Source: a virus. Taken from it: DNA of 30,803 bases. This document shows, piece by piece, positions 13,251-18,874 of this stretch. Position numbers and translations under genes: made by a program. The notes beneath the pieces are model-generated. The model ran no database searches, was not told where the DNA came from, and worked only from the letters and a program-made list of their open reading frames with translations. Position 1 is the stretch's first letter. Every line of letters begins with the position of its first letter. The stretch lies in UHGV virus genome UHGV-0140727; one strand, written 5' to 3'.

Positions 13251-13326
13251 TGGAGAATCCGAAGGGACTCGAACCCTTATAAACCTGTTTTGCAGACAGG
13301 CACATAGCCATTTCTGTCACGGATTC
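13251..13326 (-). tRNA. tRNA-Cys (anticodon GCA)
   Basis: Hand fold on the minus strand: perfect 7-bp acceptor (gaatccg/cggattc), T-arm AAGGG-ACTCGAA-CCCTT on the plus strand, anticodon stem CCTGT/ACAGG with loop CUGCAAA, CCA encoded. Confidence 0.75.
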
Positions 13327-13330
13327 AAAT

Positions 13331-13423
13331 TGGAGGAAGATACCAGACTTGAACTGGTACACCGATTTCTCAGCTACTGGCAGTTTAGCAAACTGCTCCC
13401 TTACCTTTTAGGGTTAATCTTCC
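13331..13423 (-). tRNA. tRNA-Ser (anticodon GCU), type II
   Basis: 93 nt. Perfect acceptor (GGAAGAT/ATCTTCC), T-arm ACCAG-TTCAAGT-CTGGT, anticodon stem GCAGT/ACTGC with loop UUGCUAA, long variable arm, CCA encoded. Confidence 0.7.
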
Positions 13424-13424
13424 A

Positions 13425-14159
13425 TTATTTCTGTAATGCGTTCTTCATTTCTGGTGTTGCAATAGTGTCAATTACACCAGTTTTACAAGCATCATCAAAC
13501 CAGTCTGGTAAGATACCTGCTAAGAACCCATTGATATTCGTTTTAAGGTACTCTGCAATAAGGGCAGCTTCTTCTTCAATCATCTGCACAACTTCATCTG
13601 CATAAGCTGTAATCTTTGAGATACCTTCATTAATCTTACTGACAGCTTGGTTAGCTAAATCAGAAACAGTATCAAGACCCTTATCAATAGCATCTTGTAA
13701 GTCACTTAACACACCATTAACACTATCTAGTGTACTGTTAATCATGTCAATAGCTTTTTGACCATACTCTGTAGCAACACCCATAATACCACTGAATGGT
13801 GTACAACCAACTTGTTCTCCTGCTGCACCCATAACATTGGAGTATCCCTTTGCTACCTGCATACGTGATGAAAACTCATCAATAGACTTTTGACCGTAGT
13901 CTGTTAAGGTCTTAGTGGTTGCTGTAGTGCTTGTCAGGCTTGTTGTAAAGCTGTTTAGAAGGACTGTTGTAAGCCCAGCAGCAACAAGTTTCTCCTTCAT
14001 TGTAGGGTCTGTTACAGAGCTAATAGAGCTTACAAGTGATGTAGAGGCAGATACGGTTCCACCGAGAACTGCTGCACCAGTAATAAGTGGGTTAGAAAAC
14101 CCTTTACCGGTTTTTAAGAGATTAAAAATCTCCTTACCTTGTTCTGTCATCTCTTTCAT
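13425..14159 (-). CDS. Hypothetical Ser/Thr-rich protein embedded between tRNA genes
   Basis: ORF track gives 13425-14222, but the first 21 codons overlap a tRNA. The internal ATG at 14157-14159 has an AAAGGTG ribosome-binding site upstream. The protein has a low-complexity Ser/Thr-rich segment and a helical C-terminal half. Confidence 0.45.
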   Translation of the reverse strand: MKEMTEQGKEIFNLLKTGKGFSNPLITGAAVLGGTVSASTSLVSSISSVTDPTMKEKLVAAGLTTVLLNSFTTSLTSTTATTKTLTDYGQKSIDEFSSRMQVAKGYSNVMGAAGEQVGCTPFSGIMGVATEYGQKAIDMINSTLDSVNGVLSDLQDAIDKGLDTVSDLANQAVSKINEGISKITAYADEVVQMIEEEAALIAEYLKTNINGFLAGILPDWFDDACKTGVIDTIATPEMKNALQK

Positions 14160-14176
14160 TAAGCACCTTTGAAATT

Positions 14177-14244
14177 GGTAGCCCAGTGGGATTTGAACCC
14201 TCTTCTCATGTTTTTCAGACACGCGCTTTAACCATATAAGCTAC
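14177..14244 (-). tRNA. tRNA-like, probable tRNA-Phe (anticodon GAA), atypical D region
   Basis: T-arm (GAGGG-TTCAAAT-CCCAC), anticodon stem-loop CGTGT-CUGAAAA-ACATG and a 7-bp acceptor with two G-U pairs are present. No convincing D-stem could be folded and CCA is not clearly encoded. Ends approximate. Confidence 0.4.
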
Positions 14245-14257
14245 TTGGACTATAAAT

Positions 14258-14333
14258 TGGGGTGACCTACGGGATTTGAACCCGTATAGACCATGTTCAC
14301 AGCATGGGTCATTACCATTTATGATAAGGCCAC
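14258..14333 (-). tRNA. tRNA-His (anticodon GUG)
   Basis: T-arm ACGGG-TTCAAAT-CCCGT (sense), anticodon stem CCATG/CATGG with loop CUGUGAA, 7-bp acceptor with one G-U pair, discriminator C, CCA encoded. Confidence 0.7.
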
Positions 14334-14364
14334 ATTTAAGGACTCTCGTAAGAATCCTTAGAAG

Positions 14365-14440
14365 TGGCAGCGGCATAAGGATTTGAACCTTAATAAGACA
14401 GCTTCAGAGACTGCTGCATTGCCAGTTATGCTATACCGCT
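14365..14440 (-). tRNA. tRNA-Gln (anticodon CUG)
   Basis: T-arm TAAGG-TTCAAAT-CCTTA, D-stem GCAT/ATGC, anticodon loop CUCUGAA on a stem with two terminal G-U pairs, 7-bp acceptor, CCA encoded. Confidence 0.55.
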
Positions 14441-14445
14441 AAATT

Positions 14446-14516
14446 TGGTACTCCATATCGGATTCGAACCGATACATAACACAGATTTTAAGTCTGGCCT
14501 CTCTGCCAATTGGAGT
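14446..14516 (-). tRNA. Compact tRNA-like gene, anticodon UAA (Leu-type anticodon, no long variable arm)
   Basis: 71 nt. Clean T-arm ATCGG-TTCGAAT-CCGAT, 6-bp acceptor plus mismatch, CCA encoded. The only anticodon-like loop is CUUAAAA on a 4-bp stem; the D-stem is 3-4 bp and shares nucleotides with the anticodon stem. Atypical. Confidence 0.4.
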
Positions 14517-14526
14517 AATGGAGCAT

Positions 14527-14602
14527 TGGCGGGGGATGTTGGAATTGAACCAACTTCTTCGATTTCAAAGACCGAGGTTTTAACCTTGTAAACTAATCCC
14601 CT
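14527..14602 (-). tRNA. tRNA-Gln (anticodon UUG)
   Basis: T-arm GTTGG-TTCAATT-CCAAC, D-stem GTTT/AAAC, anticodon stem TCGGT/ATCGA with loop CUUUGAA, 6-bp acceptor plus a terminal mismatch, CCA encoded. Confidence 0.65.
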
Positions 14603-14610
14603 TTAAATCT

Positions 14611-15168
14611 TTACTTTCTCAGTGGATGAATAAAGAATGCCAACATAACTCTTTCCCTTGAGAATGCTCTTTCTTCTGGGACAACACTTTTTAGTTTCCA
14701 TCCAATATAAATTCTCCAGTAAAACTGTTTACCAAAGACTTTAATTGATGGTATAAAAGCGAATAATCCCCAAGCATTACTGTTCCACATTAGGAGATAA
14801 CCAGTCTGATTATCTTCAGGGTCAGAACTTACGTTGATATTACCTTTCCACTTAGTCACATCTTTTACATCTCTTCCTAATACATGGTAAGAGAAGTTAT
14901 AAGCTTTGTTTCTCCAGAGCCATCCAACTCTCTGCATGTAGACACCCAGCTTACCAATCTTTCTAATCTTAGCCCATCTTTTAACGTGGCCTTCATCACC
15001 ATCAATTGGGTTGTCATATGTCTCCATCCATCTGAACCCGAAAGGTAAGTGTCCTTTCTTCTCACTGTAGAATGGAACTACGAAAGGTGCTAAGATAACT
15101 GCTAGTATTGCTGCAAGTGGTTCTAGCAAAGCTAAGAAAATCCATGAAGCATATTTTAAGTATCTCAT
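14611..15168 (-). CDS. Hypothetical membrane protein (N-terminal transmembrane segment) inside the tRNA array
   Basis: 185-aa ORF with a hydrophobic N-terminus (WIFLALLEPLAAILAVILAPFVVPF). Its start overlaps the stop of the upstream 80-aa ORF in ATGA fashion (15165-15168). Confidence 0.5.
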   Translation of the reverse strand: MRYLKYASWIFLALLEPLAAILAVILAPFVVPFYSEKKGHLPFGFRWMETYDNPIDGDEGHVKRWAKIRKIGKLGVYMQRVGWLWRNKAYNFSYHVLGRDVKDVTKWKGNINVSSDPEDNQTGYLLMWNSNAWGLFAFIPSIKVFGKQFYWRIYIGWKLKSVVPEERAFSRERVMLAFFIHPLRK

Positions 15169-15407
15169 TGTCTAACCCTCGTAAGGAGGTAAGCATTATT
15201 ACTTGTTTCTGAGCTTTCTGGTAACATTGTCTCAAAATTGACACTTTTAAGTTGTCTTCCACCAAAGCAATGACCAATAAATCTTTCTACTTTTATTGGG
15301 TCGCATTCCCATCCGACTTTTAAGAAAATGTGGGTATCTATAGTGGGAACCCTTACAAACTCAATACTATTGGGATTTTCATGTTCAACGACGATTAATG
15401 TTTGCAT
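15165..15407 (-). CDS. Hypothetical protein, first gene of a two-gene operon inside the tRNA array
   Basis: 80-aa ORF with an AGAGGA ribosome-binding site 5 nt upstream of the ATG at 15405-15407, translationally coupled to the downstream membrane protein. Confidence 0.45.
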   Translation of the reverse strand: MQTLIVVEHENPNSIEFVRVPTIDTHIFLKVGWECDPIKVERFIGHCFGGRQLKSVNFETMLPESSETSNNAYLLTRVRQ

Positions 15408-15425
15408 AAATTCCTCTTGCTTATC

Positions 15426-15501
15426 TGGCGCAGGATAAGGGATTCGAACCCATACTAACAGTTTCGTAGACTGTTGCTCTATCCATTTGAACTAATCCTG
15501 C
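15426..15501 (-). tRNA. tRNA-Arg (anticodon ACG)
   Basis: Perfect 7-bp acceptor (GCAGGAT/ATCCTGC), T-loop TTCGAAT, perfect anticodon stem ACAGT/ACTGT with loop CUACGAA, CCA encoded. Confidence 0.75.
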
Positions 15502-15615
15502 TTACCTACGAGAACACCATACAGTTTTTCACAAACTTTGTTTTTACGTCTGTTTAGATATGACGCTCTAAACTTTTTTGCGATGGACTTATCACTCATA
15601 GTGCTCTCCTAAAAT

Positions 15616-15693
15616 TGGTGTTCCAAGACGGATTCGAACCGTCACTAATACAAGGTTTGAGCTTGCATCCTCTGCCAATTGGGATACTGGAAC
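15616..15693 (-). tRNA. tRNA with anticodon CAA (Leu-type anticodon, short variable region)
   Basis: T-arm GACGG-TTCGAAT-CCGTC, 7-bp acceptor, discriminator A, CCA encoded, anticodon stem GCAAG/CTTGT with loop CUCAAAC. Variable region is only about 6 nt, so it is not a canonical type II Leu tRNA. Confidence 0.5.
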
Positions 15694-15694
15694 A

Positions 15695-15769
15695 TGGTAC
15701 TCACTAAAGGACTTGAACCTTTTTCTTCATCTTGTAAGGGTGATGTTTTACCATATAAACTAAGCGAGT
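15695..15769 (-). tRNA. tRNA-Val (anticodon UAC)
   Basis: T-arm AAAGG-TTCAAGT-CCTTT, D-stem GTTT/AAAC, anticodon loop CUUACAA on a stem with one mismatch, 7-bp acceptor with one G-U pair, CCA encoded. Confidence 0.65.
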
Positions 15770-15864
15770 GTGAAAGAGGTCTGAAGTTGTGCCGCTAACT
15801 CAACTCCGTGGAATTTGTTACGGTCTTCAGTTGACACCAGCGGTCTTTCACTTGACCCCTGAAT

Positions 15865-15940
15865 TGGTGCTCCCACAAGGATTCGAACCCTGATAAGTTG
15901 CTTACAAGGCAACCGTAATAGCCAATTATACGATAGGAGC
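15865..15940 (-). tRNA. tRNA-Thr (anticodon UGU)
   Basis: Perfect anticodon stem GTTGC/GCAAC with loop CUUGUAA, T-loop TTCGAAT, 7-bp acceptor with one G-U pair, CCA encoded. Confidence 0.75.
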
Positions 15941-15946
15941 ATTATT

Positions 15947-16021
15947 TGGAGCATCCAGAGGGAATCGAACCCTCAACCTCAGTTTGGAAGACTGTAATTT
16001 TCCCGTTTAAACTATGGATGC
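15947..16021 (-). tRNA. tRNA-Gly (anticodon UCC)
   Basis: Perfect acceptor (GCATCCA/TGGATGC), T-arm GAGGG-TTCGATT-CCCTC, anticodon loop CUUCCAA, CCA encoded. Confidence 0.7.
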
Positions 16022-16027
16022 ACTAAT

Positions 16028-16103
16028 TGGTGGAGTCACTGAGAATTGAACTCAGTTCCCAAGTTTGCAAAACTCGAATTTTAACCATATAAACTATGAC
16101 CCC
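16028..16103 (-). tRNA. tRNA-Ala (anticodon UGC)
   Basis: T-arm CTGAG-TTCAATT-CTCAG, anticodon stem CGAGT/ACTTG with loop UUUGCAA, acceptor with one G-U pair, CCA encoded. Confidence 0.65.
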
Positions 16104-16109
16104 ATTTTT

Positions 16110-16185
16110 TGGTACAGGTGGAGGGAATTGAACCCATCGTCTTACTGATTAAGAGTCAGCCGCATAACCATTTTGCTACACCTGC
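16110..16185 (-). tRNA. tRNA-Lys (anticodon CUU)
   Basis: T-loop TTCAATT, anticodon stem GCTGA/TCAGT with loop CUCUUAA, 7-bp acceptor, CCA encoded. Confidence 0.6.
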
Positions 16186-16192
16186 ATTAATT

Positions 16193-16270
16193 TGGTAGGA
16201 GACAAGGGATTCGAACCCTCAAACATCTCGTTCTAAGCGAGATAGGTTTACCAATTACCATCAATCTCCC
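16193..16270 (-). tRNA. tRNA with anticodon UAG (Leu-type anticodon, short variable region)
   Basis: Perfect anticodon stem TCTCG/CGAGA with loop CUUAGAA, T-loop TTCGAAT, D-loop with a TTGG signature, discriminator A, CCA encoded. The 5-nt variable region makes it a type I architecture despite the Leu anticodon. Confidence 0.55.
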
Positions 16271-16352
16271 ATTAAATCTTTTTAGAGAACTTCTAAGAAC
16301 CTAAGCAACAAGGTTCCACAACAAGCTGTAATAACCTTAGAAGCCCTCTAAA

Positions 16353-16371
16353 AAGACCTAAAAAGGTCTTT
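16353..16371 (-). terminator. Weak hairpin, terminator-like, inside a 250-nt tRNA-free spacer
   Basis: Hairpin aagacc-taaaaa-ggtctt flanked by A/T runs on both sides (16350-16354, 16369-16371). Orientation ambiguous. Confidence 0.3.
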
Positions 16372-16527
16372 GCATAGTCTTGTTTAATCCGGTGACTAGA
16401 ACCTTTGGAGAGCTTGATATTATCTCTTCTCCGTGACACCTACTAGGTGCTTTATCAGTGCGTACAACAATACACGCGGTATACCAAAGCAACATCCGAA
16501 TGAAGCTTGGCTTTAAATCTTATTAGG

Positions 16528-16615
16528 CGGTAAGTAAAGGAGTCGAACCCTCACCGTATCTCTACAGTGGCAACAGTTTTCAAGACTGTTTGGCTGCCAT
16601 TAGCCGCTACCTACC
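16528..16615 (-). tRNA. tRNA-Ser (anticodon UGA), type II
   Basis: 88 nt. Perfect anticodon stem ACAGT/ACTGT with loop CUUGAAA, long variable arm, T-loop TTCGACT, 7-bp acceptor with one G-U pair. CCA is not encoded. Confidence 0.65.
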
Positions 16616-16628
16616 CCTAATAAGACTT

Positions 16629-16711
16629 TGGCATGGGACGGAGGAGTTGAACCCCTTTGAAACGGTTTTGGAGGCCGTTGCTCATGCCTTAGAGTCTTAA
16701 CATCGTCCCAT
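16629..16711 (-). tRNA. tRNA-like, probable tRNA-Trp (anticodon CCA) with extra nucleotides between acceptor and D-stem
   Basis: Perfect 7-bp acceptor (ATGGGAC/GTCCCAT), CCA encoded, T-loop TTCAACT, anticodon loop CUCCAAA. About 10 nt lie between the acceptor and the D-stem where 2 are expected. Confidence 0.45.
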
Positions 16712-16848
16712 ACTATAATTCGAAGCTTACCCTGTTATCTCAACACTGTCAAGCTTCTTCTCAGATTATTTACATGTTCTGGAAAACATGAGATACAGAC
16801 CACCTCCCTACAGGAAGACCCGCTAAGGCCGTCTAAGTAATCTGCTAA

Positions 16849-17196
16849 CTAATACTTTGCATGTCTTACCCTATGGCAATTTGAACATAGCAAAACACAT
16901 TTGTCAAGTTCATCTTTTAGTTCTTGAGAGAACTTCAGACTTTTTCTATGACCAATGTTAAAATCTTTCTCTGAAGGATTCAAATGATGGAAGTCATACA
17001 CTGCTGGATGATACCTTTTACCACAATCATGACAAACCCCACCTTTGTACTCAATAGCTGAAAGTTTAAGTGCTCTTTGTCTTTCTATGGTTTGCTCATT
17101 AACACACTTTTTACAGTATGAATGAGTTCTCTTACCATCTTTCATGTAGAAATCATTTTCATCCTTGCTAAGTTTGCACCTAATACAAGTTTTCAT
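16849..17196 (-). CDS. HNH endonuclease (homing-endonuclease-like) embedded in the tRNA array
   Basis: N-terminal CxxC...CxxC zinc-finger-like cysteines, then the HNH signature (DFHHLNPSEKDFN ... CSNCHRVRH). ORF track start at 17247 overlaps a tRNA; the ATG at 17194-17196 has a GGAG ribosome-binding site 5 nt upstream, giving 115 aa. Confidence 0.75.
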   Translation of the reverse strand: MKTCIRCKLSKDENDFYMKDGKRTHSYCKKCVNEQTIERQRALKLSAIEYKGGVCHDCGKRYHPAVYDFHHLNPSEKDFNIGHRKSLKFSQELKDELDKCVLLCSNCHRVRHAKY

Positions 17197-17210
17197 GATT
17201 TCTCCAAAAT

Positions 17211-17292
17211 TGGTCGAGGCGGCAGGACTCGAACCCGCATACTCCACTTACTCGGTTAACGGCGGTTTAGAAGACCGCTGAGATACGCCCCG
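17211..17292 (-). tRNA. tRNA-like gene, anticodon unresolved (candidate loop CUUCUAA would give Arg UCU)
   Basis: Clean T-arm GCGGG-TTCGAGT-CCTGC, 7-bp acceptor with one G-U pair, CCA encoded. A perfect stem GCGGT/ACCGC carries loop CUUCUAA, but the remaining nucleotides do not give a canonical D-arm and variable arm. 82 nt. Confidence 0.4.
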
Positions 17293-17540
17293 TAATTATC
17301 TTTAAAGACTCTCTTAGAAAGCCCTTAGAGATGCCCACCTTATTAATCATACCGTGGGCTAGTACGCCAAATTCTTTGATGAGGGATTGGAAGACCTCAC
17401 TGGTGTTTAGCCTATCAAGCTACTGCCAGAAAAACATTGTCGTTTGCATTTATTTTAAATTTGCAAAATAGACGCTACGCAACGAAAACTAAGGTTACTA
17501 TAAAGTAGTCACATCTCAATGTCAACAACTTTATTGAAAT

Positions 17541-17615
17541 TGGTTGTAGGTGAGGGTATCGAACCCTCTTCTAACGGTTATCAGCCGTTTGCATTACCAT
17601 TTATGCTAACCCACA
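17541..17615 (-). tRNA. tRNA-Ile (anticodon GAU)
   Basis: Perfect D-stem GCAT/ATGC, perfect anticodon stem AACGG/CCGTT with loop CUGAUAA, T-arm GAGGG-TTCGATA-CCCTC, CCA encoded. Confidence 0.75.
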
Positions 17616-17617
17616 AT

Positions 17618-17694
17618 TGGAGGTTCAGATGGGAATCGAACCCACATTCATAGGGCTTATGAGACCCTTGCATTACCTTATCTGCGACTGAACC
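17618..17694 (-). tRNA. tRNA-Met (anticodon CAU; elongator or Ile2-type not distinguishable)
   Basis: Perfect acceptor (GGTTCAG/CTGAACC), anticodon stem AGGGT/GCCCT with loop CUCAUAA, T-loop TTCGATT, CCA encoded. G1-C72 pair argues against an initiator. Confidence 0.65.
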
Positions 17695-17698
17695 ATTT

Positions 17699-17774
17699 TG
17701 GTAGAAGTGGAGGGATTCGAACCCATCGCCTGTCAGATTAAAAGTCTGCCGCATCACCATTCTGCTACACTTCC
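17699..17774 (-). tRNA. tRNA-Lys (anticodon UUU)
   Basis: T-loop TTCGAAT, anticodon loop CUUUUAA, 7-bp acceptor, CCA encoded. Confidence 0.65.
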
Positions 17775-17916
17775 ATTAAATTATATTTGTAGATAAGCTA
17801 CCCAGACTTGCTTAAGGTCTGTAGCGATGTGTCTTTTCGGGTTAAATCTAGAATCTACCCTTCCACCTTTGTGGTCGCATACTCACAGGTAAGCTTAATA
17901 ACTTATCTACAAAGAT

Positions 17917-18057
17917 AATTACCAGACCGTTGTTTATCATCTTAAGTGCTACCATTACACCAACTCGACATCTGCCGAGTGAAGGAATCGAACCTTCGCC
18001 TTTTCTTTACCGGAGAAATAGATTGTTTAAGTTTTGCTGTAAACGGTCTTCTGTAAA
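17917..18057 (-). ncRNA. Structured RNA element A: conserved bulged closing helix enclosing a permuted tRNA-like module (Y-RNA-like candidate)
   Basis: Sense strand: 5' TTAC-AGA-AGACCGTT (plus 18040-18055) pairs with 3' AACGGTCT-G-GTAA (plus 17920-17932). Between them, in order: T-arm GAAGG-TTCGATT-CCTTC (plus 17971-17987), a 7-bp acceptor-like hairpin closed by a 4-nt loop (plus 17953-17970), and a D-arm-like GTGTAATGGTAGCAC (plus 17936-17952). No anticodon arm. Confidence 0.45.
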
Positions 18058-18063
18058 TTTGTT

Positions 18064-18145
18064 GAGCCAGACCAAGTTTTAAATTTTTCAAAATTAAATT
18101 GGCTTGAAAATATCATACGTACTTGCTGTATTTGGTCTTCTGCTC
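18064..18145 (-). ncRNA. Structured RNA element B (paralog of A, C, D)
   Basis: Same helix architecture with compensatory changes: outer GAGC/GCTC, 5' AGA opposite 3' G, inner AGACCAA/TTGGTCT, conserved TACAGCAA at the start of the enclosed loop. Confidence 0.4.
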
Positions 18146-18203
18146 CTTTAAAGGATACTCGTAAGAACCCTTTAAGGGAGGGGCTAAATAGCCCTCTCAA
18201 AAT

Positions 18204-18281
18204 TGGCGGTTACGAAGGGATTTGAACCCTCATCATCTCCCGTGACAGGGGAGTATTTTAACCAAATTAAACTACATAACC
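18204..18281 (-). tRNA. tRNA-Asp (anticodon GUC)
   Basis: Perfect anticodon stem CTCCC/GGGAG with loop CUGUCAC, T-loop TTCAAAT, acceptor with one G-U pair, CCA encoded. Confidence 0.75.
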
Positions 18282-18286
18282 TTTAT

Positions 18287-18374
18287 TGGTGTGCCGTGTA
18301 GGAGTCGAACCTACCGAGTCTCAATGACAAGGGATTTACAGTCCCCACCGCTACCATCTACGGGATAACGACAC
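18287..18374 (-). tRNA. tRNA-Tyr (anticodon GUA), type II
   Basis: 88 nt. Anticodon stem GGGGA/TCCCT with loop CUGUAAA, long variable arm, perfect T-stem GTAGG/CCTAC, 7-bp acceptor with one G-U pair, CCA encoded. Confidence 0.7.
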
Positions 18375-18383
18375 ATTTAAATT

Positions 18384-18460
18384 TGGCGGTTAGTCAGGGA
18401 TTCGAACCCTGTGCCATTCGCTTAACAGGCGACCGCACATACCTTATGTGCTTCCTAACC
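18384..18460 (-). tRNA. tRNA-Asn (anticodon GUU)
   Basis: Perfect D-stem GCAC/GTGC, anticodon loop CUGUUAA, perfect T-arm CAGGG-TTCGAAT-CCCTG, CCA encoded. Confidence 0.7.
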
Positions 18461-18470
18461 ATGTTTAGTA

Positions 18471-18543
18471 TTACCAGACCGTATCTTTCAATTTTTTCCG
18501 CTAAAAATTTAATAAATATTGCTGTAAACGGTCTTCTGTAAAT
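18471..18543 (-). ncRNA. Structured RNA element C (paralog of A, B, D)
   Basis: 5' strand is identical to element A over 24 nt (TTTACAGAAGACCGTTTACAGCAA). It pairs with 3' ACGGTCT-G-GTAA (plus 18471-18482): outer TTAC/GTAA, inner AGACCGT/ACGGTCT, enclosing about 40 nt. Confidence 0.4.
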
Positions 18544-18544
18544 T

Positions 18545-18621
18545 TGGAGGCGGGTGCAGGAGTCGAACCTGCCGATACCATGCTAATGAGACATGTGAGA
18601 CGCCCTTTCTCTATACCCGCA
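18545..18621 (-). tRNA. tRNA with anticodon CAU (Met, initiator or Ile2-type not resolved)
   Basis: Perfect T-arm GCAGG-TTCGACT-CCTGC, D-stem GAGA/TCTC, anticodon loop CUCAUUA (U at position 37 is unusual), 6-bp acceptor with a 1-72 mismatch, CCA encoded. Confidence 0.55.
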
Positions 18622-18629
18622 ATTCTTAA

Positions 18630-18709
18630 TGACCAGACCAAATCTCTTCTATGTCCGATTTACCTTCAGATGAATAAGATTAAGTTTGCTGTAATTGGTC
18701 TTCTGTCAA
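18630..18709 (-). ncRNA. Structured RNA element D (paralog of A, B, C)
   Basis: Outer helix TGAC/GTCA, 5' AGA opposite 3' G, inner AGACCAA/TTGGTCT, conserved TACAGCAA at loop start, enclosing about 50 nt. Confidence 0.4.
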
Positions 18710-18712
18710 AAC

Positions 18713-18790
18713 TGGCGTTCCAGAAGGGATTTGAACCCTCAAATATCCACTTTGAAAGAGTGGTGACTTTACCATTTTGTCTACTGGAAC
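18713..18790 (-). tRNA. tRNA-Glu (anticodon UUC)
   Basis: Perfect acceptor (GTTCCAG/CTGGAAC), perfect anticodon stem CCACT/AGTGG with loop CUUUCAA, T-loop TTCAAAT, CCA encoded. Confidence 0.75.
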
Positions 18791-18797
18791 ATTAATT

Positions 18798-18874
18798 TGG
18801 TCTCTGTTGGAGGACTTGAACCTCCGGCCTTACCGCCCCAAACGGAACGCTCTACCAAGCTGAGCTAAACAGAG
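18798..18874 (-). tRNA. tRNA-Pro (anticodon UGG)
   Basis: Perfect acceptor (CTCTGTT/AACAGAG), perfect D-stem GCTC/GAGC, perfect T-arm GGAGG-TTCAAGT-CCTCC, anticodon loop UUUGGGG with G37, CCA encoded. Confidence 0.7.

Follow-up and report, generated by a model that had tools for sequence, protein, structure and literature searches.

Two structurally non-canonical tRNA genes in the array of a Felix O1-like phage, one of them from a putative arginine tRNA class with a relocated D-arm

The virus genome UHGV-0140727 was analyzed as a single stretch of 30,803 nucleotides (nt), hereafter the window, which matches Felix O1-like phages (Felixounavirus) at 97% identity and carries a tRNA array on its minus strand at positions 13251-18874. 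ARAGORN called 25 tRNAs for 19 amino acids in the window, with tryptophan as the only amino acid lacking a tRNA and ACG as the anticodon of the only arginine tRNA called. Two further genes of the array, both on the minus strand, were not called by ARAGORN in the window. Candidate A (16629-16711) is an 83-nt tRNA-Trp(CCA)-like gene with G73 and an encoded CCA, recognized from its sequence and consensus fold, and candidate B (17211-17292) is an 82-nt non-canonical tRNA-Arg(UCU) gene with a relocated D-arm and an encoded CCA, recognized from its sequence, Rfam and a covariance model. A sequence-only reading of the window had singled out both genes for their odd spacing and had listed unusual tRNAs, decayed genes and tRNA-like regulatory RNAs as possible identities.

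Read from 17292 down to 17211, candidate B opens with the acceptor 5' strand CGGGGCG (gene positions 1-7; 17286-17292), a conserved 5' linker U8-A9-U10-C11-U12-C13-A14 (17279-17285) and the anticodon arm GCGGU-CUUCUAA-ACCGC (17262-17278), with the anticodon UCU at 17269-17271. These are followed by a linker or bulge, CGUUAACC (positions 32-39; 17254-17261), that is specific to the subfamily found in enterobacterial phages, by the trinucleotide G40-A41-G42 (17251-17253), by a D-loop-like motif, UAAGUGGA (positions 43-50; 17243-17250), and by GUAU. The T-arm GCGGG-UUCGAGU-CCUGC (17222-17238), the acceptor 3' strand CGCCUCG (17215-17221), a discriminator A and CCA complete the gene. Sequence and fold bear out the good T-arm and acceptor of the sequence-only reading, the acceptor having 7 base pairs (bp) and the T-arm a canonical UUCGANU loop, and the one perfect stem-loop, which begins 7 nt past the acceptor and so makes a standard cloverleaf impossible. 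Only those 7 nt separate the acceptor and anticodon stems, and the D hairpin that a canonical tRNA has between its acceptor and anticodon arms, after a 2-nt linker, is absent. That reading was right that B does not fit a cloverleaf, but B has a defined alternative architecture of its own, one common to a large family of phage genes.

The Rfam tRNA model matched 17214-17292 with 31.7 bits, above its gathering score of 29, by deleting the D-arm and placing a 20-nt insertion in the variable region, yet the gene escapes ARAGORN. Across 38 distinct B-type sequences, all seven acceptor pairs, all five anticodon stem pairs and three of the five T-stem pairs change on both sides, the anticodon loop is nearly invariant, and 99.2% of the pairing cells in the alignment are paired, a level reached by 0/500 shuffles. 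Dinucleotide-shuffle z-scores of single-sequence folds were -1.39 for A and 0.04 for B. Decay of B is excluded by the stem covariation. R1, a covariance model built here, scores B at 100.8 bits, divergent members with ACG, UCG and UCU anticodons at 49-58 bits, and ordinary tRNAs at 35 bits or less.

When both linkers were left free in a covariation scan, positions 11-13 of the 5' linker were found to covary with the three nucleotides directly 5' of UAANUGGA. This helix, S2, pairs C11-U12-C13 (17280-17282) with G40-A41-G42 (17251-17253) in B, and it appears in the family as CUC/GAG, CAC/GUG, CAG/CUG, CAU/AUG, CGC/GCG, CUU/AAG, CGG/CCG and CCC/GGG. The members had been retrieved by patterns that left the S2 positions unconstrained, and the covariation holds in two independent alignments. 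In the B alignment, pair 12-41 is UA in 27 sequences, AU in 8 and GC in 3, and pair 13-40 is CG in 32, GC in 3 and UA in 3, with zero unpaired cells for either. In an independent set of 62 short-linker members, pair 13-40 is CG in 26, GC in 25, UA in 7 and AU in 4. It follows from this covariation that S2 encloses the anticodon arm and that the D-loop-like octamer comes after S2. Every Arg member has UAANUGGA unchanged, even where the pattern that retrieved it left this motif free. The bulge is conserved as C-R-U-U-A-A-Y-C in type 1 members and spans only 3-5 nt in the broad family, and a longer, type 2 subfamily has an added 3-bp stem, GUC/GAC (GAC/GUC in one member), which forms a pseudoknot with S2.

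We read S2 as the D-stem because the UAUCUCA, GAG and AAGUGGA segments of type 1 members resemble the canonical D-region. The type 1 linker UAUCUCA is taken here to correspond to canonical U8-A9-G10-C11-U12-C13-A14 and GAG to canonical 22-24, and AAGUGGA resembles the D-loop of E. coli tRNA-Arg (argU). On this reading the D-loop would be displaced between S2 and the T-arm, and the molecule would have a three-way rather than a four-way junction. The residues of UAANUGGA may be counterparts of canonical D-loop positions, with A14, R15, G18, G19 and A20 as the equivalents proposed within the octamer. U8, A44, A45, G48-G49, A50 and U54 of B could act as U8, A14, R15, G18-G19, A20/21 and Y48, respectively, and S2, an A14/C39 layer and the anticodon stem would together rebuild the canonical ten-layer stack.

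Three other pairings were considered for B and set aside. Helix S1, which would join U8-A9-U10 to G51-U52-A53, never varies in the alignment and was not adopted; of the variants bearing on it, L144 (U10 to C) supports it, and L272 and L380 (A53 to U) oppose it or shift its register. The mini-hairpin CCG/UGG in the variable region, taken from the single-sequence minimum free energy fold, is broken in relatives that swap CC to AA uncompensated. Pairing of C11-U12-C13 with the second GAG (49-51) was dropped as well, since positions 12 and 13 vary while 49-51 are invariant.

A BLAST search found the 82-nt B element in 263 phage records, with homologs in unrelated phages (the jumbo phages 7t3 and A4, phi92-like and rV5-like phages, Klebsiella phages of 110 kb and 143 kb, and a Vibrio phage) that are publicly labeled 'tRNA-OTHER', 'tRNA-TERM' or 'tRNA-Undet' or carry no label. 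Motif scans of viral contigs returned, among the matches listed, members with entirely different acceptor, anticodon and T stem sequences. An anticodon-free scan, whose pattern still fixed UAANUGGA, gave at least 68 new valid members, all with Arg anticodons, two apparent exceptions being parsing errors. A structural search free of sequence motifs was also applied to 3.66 Mb of retrieved sequence; it looked for a 7-bp acceptor, a 5-9 nt linker, a hairpin of 5 bp and 7 nt with U33 and R37, a further 10-32 nt and a T-arm. It yielded 110 matches, of which 6 were canonical tRNAs misread by the filter and 104 were true members: 103 with Arg anticodons (UCU 65, ACG 28, CCU 7, UCG 2, CCG 1) and one with Ile(UAU). 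The 185,579 bacterial and archaeal species genomes searched held four B-type members, all on small contigs of metagenome-assembled genomes, and the class is all but confined to phages.

The bacterial Arg identity set consists of C35, U or G at 36, A or G at 73 (with U73 tolerated) and A20 as the main determinant (PMC9976931). With UCU, CCU, ACG, UCG or CCG as their anticodons, all 103 Arg-type members have C35 and U/G36, and the discriminator is A in B and A in 17, G in 20 and U in 3 sequences at family column 79. In the relocated loop of every Arg member, GG is directly followed by an A that never changes (UGGA). The sole Ile member has U there, and its relocated loop, UAGCGGUU, bears G16, U20 and U21, which belong to the Ile identity set (PMC9976931). 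That the relocated loop bears identity bases fitting each anticodon supports it as a working D-loop, in which the final A of UGGA would occupy the A20 position in three dimensions. The Ile(UAU) gene (L381:2237-2320) and an Arg(UCU) gene (L381:2322-2405) are relocated-D-arm genes in tandem. The Klebsiella phage Roth50 has a second 'tRNA-OTHER' of 85 nt (L005:120-204), with a T-arm identical to that of B and a long GC-rich variable-region hairpin, which does not fit the B scaffold.

The place of B-type genes in phage arrays is consistent with a role in decoding. They sit flush between ordinary tRNA genes, and a canonical Arg(UCU) was present in 0/10 arrays that have at least 15 tRNAs and a UCU-type member. 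A canonical Arg(ACG) was likewise present in 0/8 arrays that have at least 20 tRNAs and an ACG-type member, most of which have a canonical Arg(UCU). In Mooglevirus the slot of B holds a canonical tRNA-Arg(UCU) of unrelated sequence. B-type genes thus appear, from gene content, to replace the matching canonical Arg isoacceptor. In the 19 long open reading frames (ORFs) of the window, AGA is the commonest Arg codon (98/224, 43.8%) and AGG makes up 7.1%. CGG is nearly unused in the same ORFs (1/224 Arg codons, 0.4%), a scarcity that matches a set of Arg-ACG and Arg-UCU with no CGG-reading anticodon.

Candidate A reads, from 16711 on, AUGGGAC-GAUGUUAAGA-CUC-UAAGGCAU-GAG-CA-ACGGC-CUCCAAA-ACCGU and then, to 16629, UUCAA-AGGGG-UUCAACU-CCUCC-GUCCCAU-G-CCA, with the anticodon CCA at 16669-16671. 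The perfect 7-bp acceptor AUGGGAC/GUCCCAU, here followed by G and CCA, and the Trp-like loop CUCCAAA that had been noticed from the sequence are borne out by sequence and fold. So is the long spacer between acceptor and D-stem, which sequence, fold and RNAalifold place at 8-10 nt (GAUGUUAA[GA]) against the 2 expected. A D hairpin is present, CUC-UAAGGCAU-GAG (16681-16694), whose middle pair, U-A in Felixounavirus, is reversed to A-U in Mooglevirus and the Yersinia phage, and it departs from the canonical arrangement in the 8-10 nt linker before it. The extra linker, AUGUUAAGA (16695-16703), is invariant in 13/13 variants and lies unpaired in the RNAalifold consensus between the D-stem and an acceptor that is there 8 bp long; over its possible readings the acceptor-to-D linker spans about 7-10 nt.

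The A element was found in 234 phage records, confined to Ounavirinae-type genomes and the Yersinia phage P778 but covering three or more genera, in 13 variants that all have the anticodon CCA. In their RNAalifold consensus the acceptor has 8 bp, the linker is 9 nt long and unpaired, the D-stem has 3 bp, the T-stem 4 bp and the anticodon stem 5 bp with a 9-nt loop, the last being equivalent to a C31-A39 or C31-C39 mismatch combined with a covarying 26-44 pair. Eight of its 20 pairs are kept via double changes, pairs in the D, anticodon and T stems included. The T-arm, with its UUCAACU loop, has either four Watson-Crick or GU pairs plus A49-C65 or, with an 8-bp acceptor, a 4-bp stem. The 8/4 and 7/5 readings (acceptor/T-stem pairs, the latter with the A49-C65 mismatch) are not separable for A because the G8-C65 pair and the linker are invariant. 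The bacterial Trp identity set consists of C34, C35, A36, G73, A1-U72, G2-C71, G3-C70, G4-C69, G5-C68 and A9 (PMC9976931). Of these, A has the CCA anticodon, G73, A1-U72 (G1-U72 in some relatives), G3-C70, G4-C69 and G5-C68; an equivalent of A9 cannot be placed within its long linker.

Other identities for A did not hold. With the B model it scores only 10.2 bits, which speaks against a second B-type gene. Rfam gave no tRNA match for 16635-16709, only a sub-threshold match to tRNA-Sec (RF01852) at 23 bits (E = 0.15) where 47 are needed, and the anticodon CCA, the D-stem of 3-4 bp and the short variable loop do not suit tRNA-Sec. An allo-tRNA was rejected for the variable loop of 4-5 nt and the Trp-type identity bases. 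We regard A as a lineage-specific variant whose long linker was not found described in the open-access literature. The Mooglevirus Sf14 genome (H82) carries the A element unannotated, and the paper on the tRNAs of that phage lists tRNAs for 19 amino acids (PMC12482277). In the Escherichia phage VpaE1_ev78, the A slot holds an unrelated 71-nt tRNA-Trp(CCA) with a shortened D-arm and its anticodon at position 30 (L001:1149-1219), beside which lies an extra ORF of 405 nt; this looks like a cassette replacement that keeps Trp specificity. A and B also share a string of GUUAA, two variable bases, a 3-nt D-stem strand (CUC in A, GAG in B) and UAAG(U)GG, at 16695-16701 and 17243-17260. A structural module common to both genes, or recombination in the past, may lie behind the string, but it is statistically weak, its GUUAA part is absent from most B-type genes, and it was set aside.

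Both candidates are kept in hundreds of phage records with compensatory base changes, as comparison with related phage arrays brought out, and they are therefore no chance features. A and B are probably functional tRNAs of non-canonical structure that make the phage's own decoding set complete; together with the 25 tRNAs called by ARAGORN they would make 27 genes. Among the identities first listed for them, that of unusual tRNAs is the one supported, by the covarying acceptor, anticodon and T stems, the invariant anticodons and the position of the two genes as the sole Trp and Arg(UCU) genes of the array. Decayed genes are ruled out by conservation and compensatory changes, and a tRNA-like regulatory RNA fits poorly with the Arg-wide range of anticodons and the complementarity to canonical isoacceptors. 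Standard cloverleaf folds with good automated scores were obtained for neither A nor B.

For B, we lean towards a new class of elongator tRNA, near-exclusively Arg and phage-restricted, that would be charged by arginyl-tRNA synthetase (ArgRS) and used by the ribosome, with the anticodon arm nested inside the D-stem and the D-loop and its identity nucleotide relocated to the variable-region side. C11-U12-C13 would pair with G40-A41-G42 to form the D-stem around the anticodon hairpin, and the D-loop nucleotides UAANUGGA would lie in the strand toward the T-arm, not enclosed by the D-stem. Stacked on the anticodon stem, S2 would bring the arm to about ten base-pair layers, the canonical length; GG in the relocated loop would touch the T-loop as G18/G19 do, and the A after it would act as A20, the main ArgRS identity element. 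Cut from the array transcript and charged by host ArgRS, B would read AGA and AGG, codons poorly decoded in the host and in heavy use by the phage. The rewired core may, as a speculation, have been selected to escape host enzymes that recognize the D-arm or elbow of tRNA-Arg, such as Arg-specific tRNases. A would be a lineage-restricted tRNA-Trp(CCA) with a local D hairpin, a long linker, a probable 8-bp acceptor and 4-bp T-stem, and an anticodon stem with unpaired C31 and A39 and thus effectively a 9-nt loop, and it would supply the one missing amino acid.

Several observations weigh against this interpretation. For B, the third pair of S2 is open in 18/62 broad-family members, which have two Watson-Crick pairs only, L380 changes A53 of S1 without compensation, and the tertiary mapping (GG to T-loop, A50 as A20, U8-A44) is inferred. 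Most members were found by patterns fixing UAUC, UAANUGGA or GGUUCGA, so that these segments look conserved in part because they were selected for, and non-Arg members whose loops have other motifs may be under-represented. Replacement of the canonical isoacceptor also has exceptions, as L088 and L142 each have a canonical tRNA-Arg(UCU) in addition to a scaffold UCU gene. Candidate A falls below threshold with every automated model (ARAGORN, Rfam and R1), shows little sequence diversity (13 variants), has U2-A71 in place of the Trp determinant G2-C71, and owes its 8/4 reading to the invariant G8-C65 pair.

It is unlikely, if conceivable, that B and possibly A are tRNA mimics acting outside translation, as decoys or sponges for a host defense nuclease that targets tRNAs or a modification enzyme, or as ArgRS ligands. 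Phage tRNAs are known to counter tRNA-cleaving immunity (PMC10264068, PMC11555353, PMC12409363), the nearly invariant anticodon loop of B is what a nuclease decoy would need, and the abnormal core of B might not suit EF-Tu or the ribosome. However, a single nuclease would not call for five Arg anticodons and one Ile anticodon, nor would a decoy be expected to substitute exactly for the canonical isoacceptor absent from each array. The retention of acceptor stem, discriminator, encoded CCA, T-loop and Arg identity bases, and the phage's heavy use of AGA with no other decoder, also favor a tRNA working in translation.

Rather less likely still is that A is a non-translational or recoding RNA, either a variant of tRNA-Trp for UGA readthrough or a processing or regulatory element of the array transcript. 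Its D region is strongly altered, and the C-A or C-C mismatch at the base of its anticodon stem gives a 9-nt loop. A 4-bp anticodon stem or the D-arm changes A9C and G24A raise UGA readthrough by tRNA-Trp(CCA), and bottom-unpinned variants occur in bacteria (PMC13092985). The published readthrough effect, however, comes from unpinning at the top of the stem and not at the bottom (PMC13092985), 14/19 long ORFs of the window end in TAA and 4/19 in TGA, no sign of recoding was found, and with the array otherwise lacking a Trp decoder, ordinary reading of UGG is the simplest function for A.

That A and B are decaying pseudogenes damaged by indels or nearby homing-endonuclease activity is hardly credible: ARAGORN rejects both, B barely exceeds the Rfam threshold and A falls below it, the shuffle z-scores are unremarkable and endonuclease genes flank B, but the B architecture recurs in unrelated phages in over 100 distinct sequences, with four helices showing compensatory changes and with stem sequences so different that the homologs are not recent copies of one sequence, A is kept with compensatory changes in three or more genera, and neither anticodons invariant within each type nor family-wide covariation is expected of a pseudogene.

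Directly downstream of B, starting after 14 nt, the ORF list has a 115-amino-acid HNH-type endonuclease ORF on the minus strand (16849-17196). Its Pfam HNH match is weak (16.6 bits, under the 21.4-bit cut-off), and relatives annotate it as an HNH endonuclease. In Roth50, Kamaji and 7t3, B is followed by other genes, of the HNH_3/NUMOD4 kind, and endonuclease genes lie just downstream of B-type genes at L005:1598-2107, L273:2584-3147, L004:1606-2124 and past position 8878 of L276. The families found there in unrelated phages are HNH, HNH_3 with or without NUMOD4, and a GIY-YIG-like ORF. A mobile cassette of B and HNH was rejected since the endonucleases belong to different families; for the same reason B looks like a homing target and not the cargo of one element, which suggests a conserved landing site that is hit recurrently by homing endonucleases.

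The third gene that had been questioned, tRNA-Phe(GAA), had been described as lacking a foldable D-stem, which proved wrong. Its true extent is 14176-14251 on the minus strand, its D-arm GCUU-AUAUGGUUA-AAGC is intact and folds, ARAGORN calls it, and Rfam aligns it at 41.1 bits, so that a standard fold with good scores was seen in this gene alone. It is essentially canonical; in the Rfam alignment its acceptor stem is irregular, with A7 extra or unpaired and two positions missing opposite, and the T-stem has one A-A mismatch.

Other structured elements were seen in the array and among the sequences searched. In the 429-nt gap between tRNA-Asp and tRNA-Lys(UUU), at 17895-18050 on the minus strand, lies a conserved tRNA-like element of permuted connectivity. 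Its outer stem, AGACCGUU/AACGGUCU, encloses the hairpin UUUCU-CCGGUAA-AGAAA and the T-arm GAAGG-UUCGAUU-CCUUC, along with a capped acceptor-like hairpin, ACUCGGC-AGAU-GUCGAGU, and a D-arm, GUGU-AAUGGUA-GCAC. Mooglevirus has covarying changes in the capped stem (ACCCUUC/GAAGGGU; ACACG/CGUGU), and the element has no Rfam match besides a partial tRNA match of 22 bits. This internal, capped acceptor belongs to that element alone and not to A or B, and its layout resembles the tRNA-like domain of the bacterial Y-RNA-like YrlA. Between tRNA-Leu(UAG) and tRNA-Ser(UGA), at 16266-16365 on the minus strand, an extended hairpin of about 100 nt gave weak Rfam matches to plant microRNA precursors (best 32.7 bits, E = 1.4e-4) that reflect no more than an inverted repeat which is long and imperfect; the hairpin might serve in processing or as a terminator. 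Over-long tRNA-Ile(UAU) genes of 91-96 nt (L357:5914-6005, L332:6917-7007, L338:8593-8686, L123:1612-1702, L133:6269-6364) occur in several phage arrays and have a normal D-arm and a long variable arm (e.g., GCGGCAGAUUACCGU), a class II-like form seldom seen for Ile.

Few RNA architectures are as highly conserved as the cloverleaf, and its known exceptions are mostly reduced mitochondrial tRNAs or stem-length variants (selenocysteine, pyrrolysine and allo-tRNAs). If our interpretation is right, the B class keeps every functional element with the order of connection changed, and the tRNA core would tolerate a topological rearrangement. It would then offer a natural test of how shape is read by ArgRS, RNase P, EF-Tu, modification enzymes and the ribosome, and a testable link to tRNA-targeting antiphage defense. 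Many phage arrays seemingly short of one Arg isoacceptor, and Felix O1-like arrays seemingly without Trp, would be explained. Phage tRNA sets would be systematically under-counted by standard annotation, and analyses of phage codon usage and tRNA adaptation based on ARAGORN or tRNAscan would miss genes. Model R1 or a simple pattern can be used to annotate B-type genes.

As a reference for B we took canonical tRNA-Arg, namely the 76-nt tRNA-Arg(UCU) in the same slot of Mooglevirus ESh22 and Michonne, and E. coli argU. B shares with it the 7-bp acceptor, the 5-bp anticodon stem with the loop CUUCUAA, the 5-bp T-stem with a UUCGANU loop, an A/G discriminator, an encoded CCA, a CUC/GAG D-stem-like helix and the position in the array, and its UGGA motif is like the D-loop of E. 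coli tRNA-Arg. It differs in that the second strand of the D-stem and the D-loop come after the anticodon arm, not before it, in its three-way junction and in lacking a conventional variable loop. The canonical gene has 13 nt more than B ahead of the anticodon arm and 17-18 nt fewer behind it.

The D-armless mitochondrial tRNAs (mt-tRNAs), such as metazoan mt-tRNA-Ser(AGY) and Ascaris mt-tRNA-Ser(UCU), also have no D hairpin, and in them, as in B, a short connector on the 5' side pairs with nucleotides beyond the anticodon arm and lengthens that arm (PMC7609411, PMC4013460). They have lost the D-loop and are short and flexible (PMC7609411, PMC4013460), whereas B retains a covarying D-stem equivalent, a D-loop-like motif (GG and A) and a canonical T-arm. 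At 82 nt it is longer than a normal tRNA, and it is encoded by phages of bacteria, which places it outside that class. Like the class II tRNAs (Leu, Ser and bacterial Tyr), B has extra nucleotides between the anticodon arm and the T-arm, and its type 2 relatives have a 3-bp stem (GUC/GAC) in this segment. In B, however, the extra segment forms no autonomous hairpin, supplies one D-stem strand and the D-loop, and goes with Arg identity, and in type 2 relatives it forms a pseudoknot with the 5' linker. Neither A nor B is a circularly permuted gene, as the acceptor strands lie at the two gene ends. B was rejected as a permuted gene and also as a tRNA-Sec, an allo-tRNA or a class II tRNA.

B is apparently an undescribed structural variant of tRNA. 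We found no description of its architecture in the open-access literature, a 2020 review of non-canonical tRNAs mentions neither phages nor the B arrangement, and Rfam 15 has no dedicated family for it. In a 2023 survey of structured RNAs in phages, a motif named 'DNAVirus_2961' is said to overlap ARAGORN tRNA-Arg calls in some cases (PMC10690425), and this motif may be the B family.

The 8-bp acceptor and 4-bp T-stem of candidate A, as seen in the consensus fold, would form the 12-bp branch of allo- and 8/4 tRNAs, of which Ser and His forms are known in phages, including phage tRNA clusters (Mukai et al. 2017, PMC5389517). Unlike these, it has a CCA anticodon, Trp identity bases and a short variable loop, and an acceptor-to-D linker of 7-9 nt is not among the allo-tRNA features given in reviews of non-canonical tRNAs. 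With the tRNA-Trp(CCA) readthrough variants A has in common the anticodon CCA and, in its C-A or C-C pair at 31-39, a stem unpinned at the bottom; the characterized variants are unpinned at the top, at 27-43 (PMC13092985), and A differs from them further in its compensating, covarying 26-44 pair and its long 5' linker.

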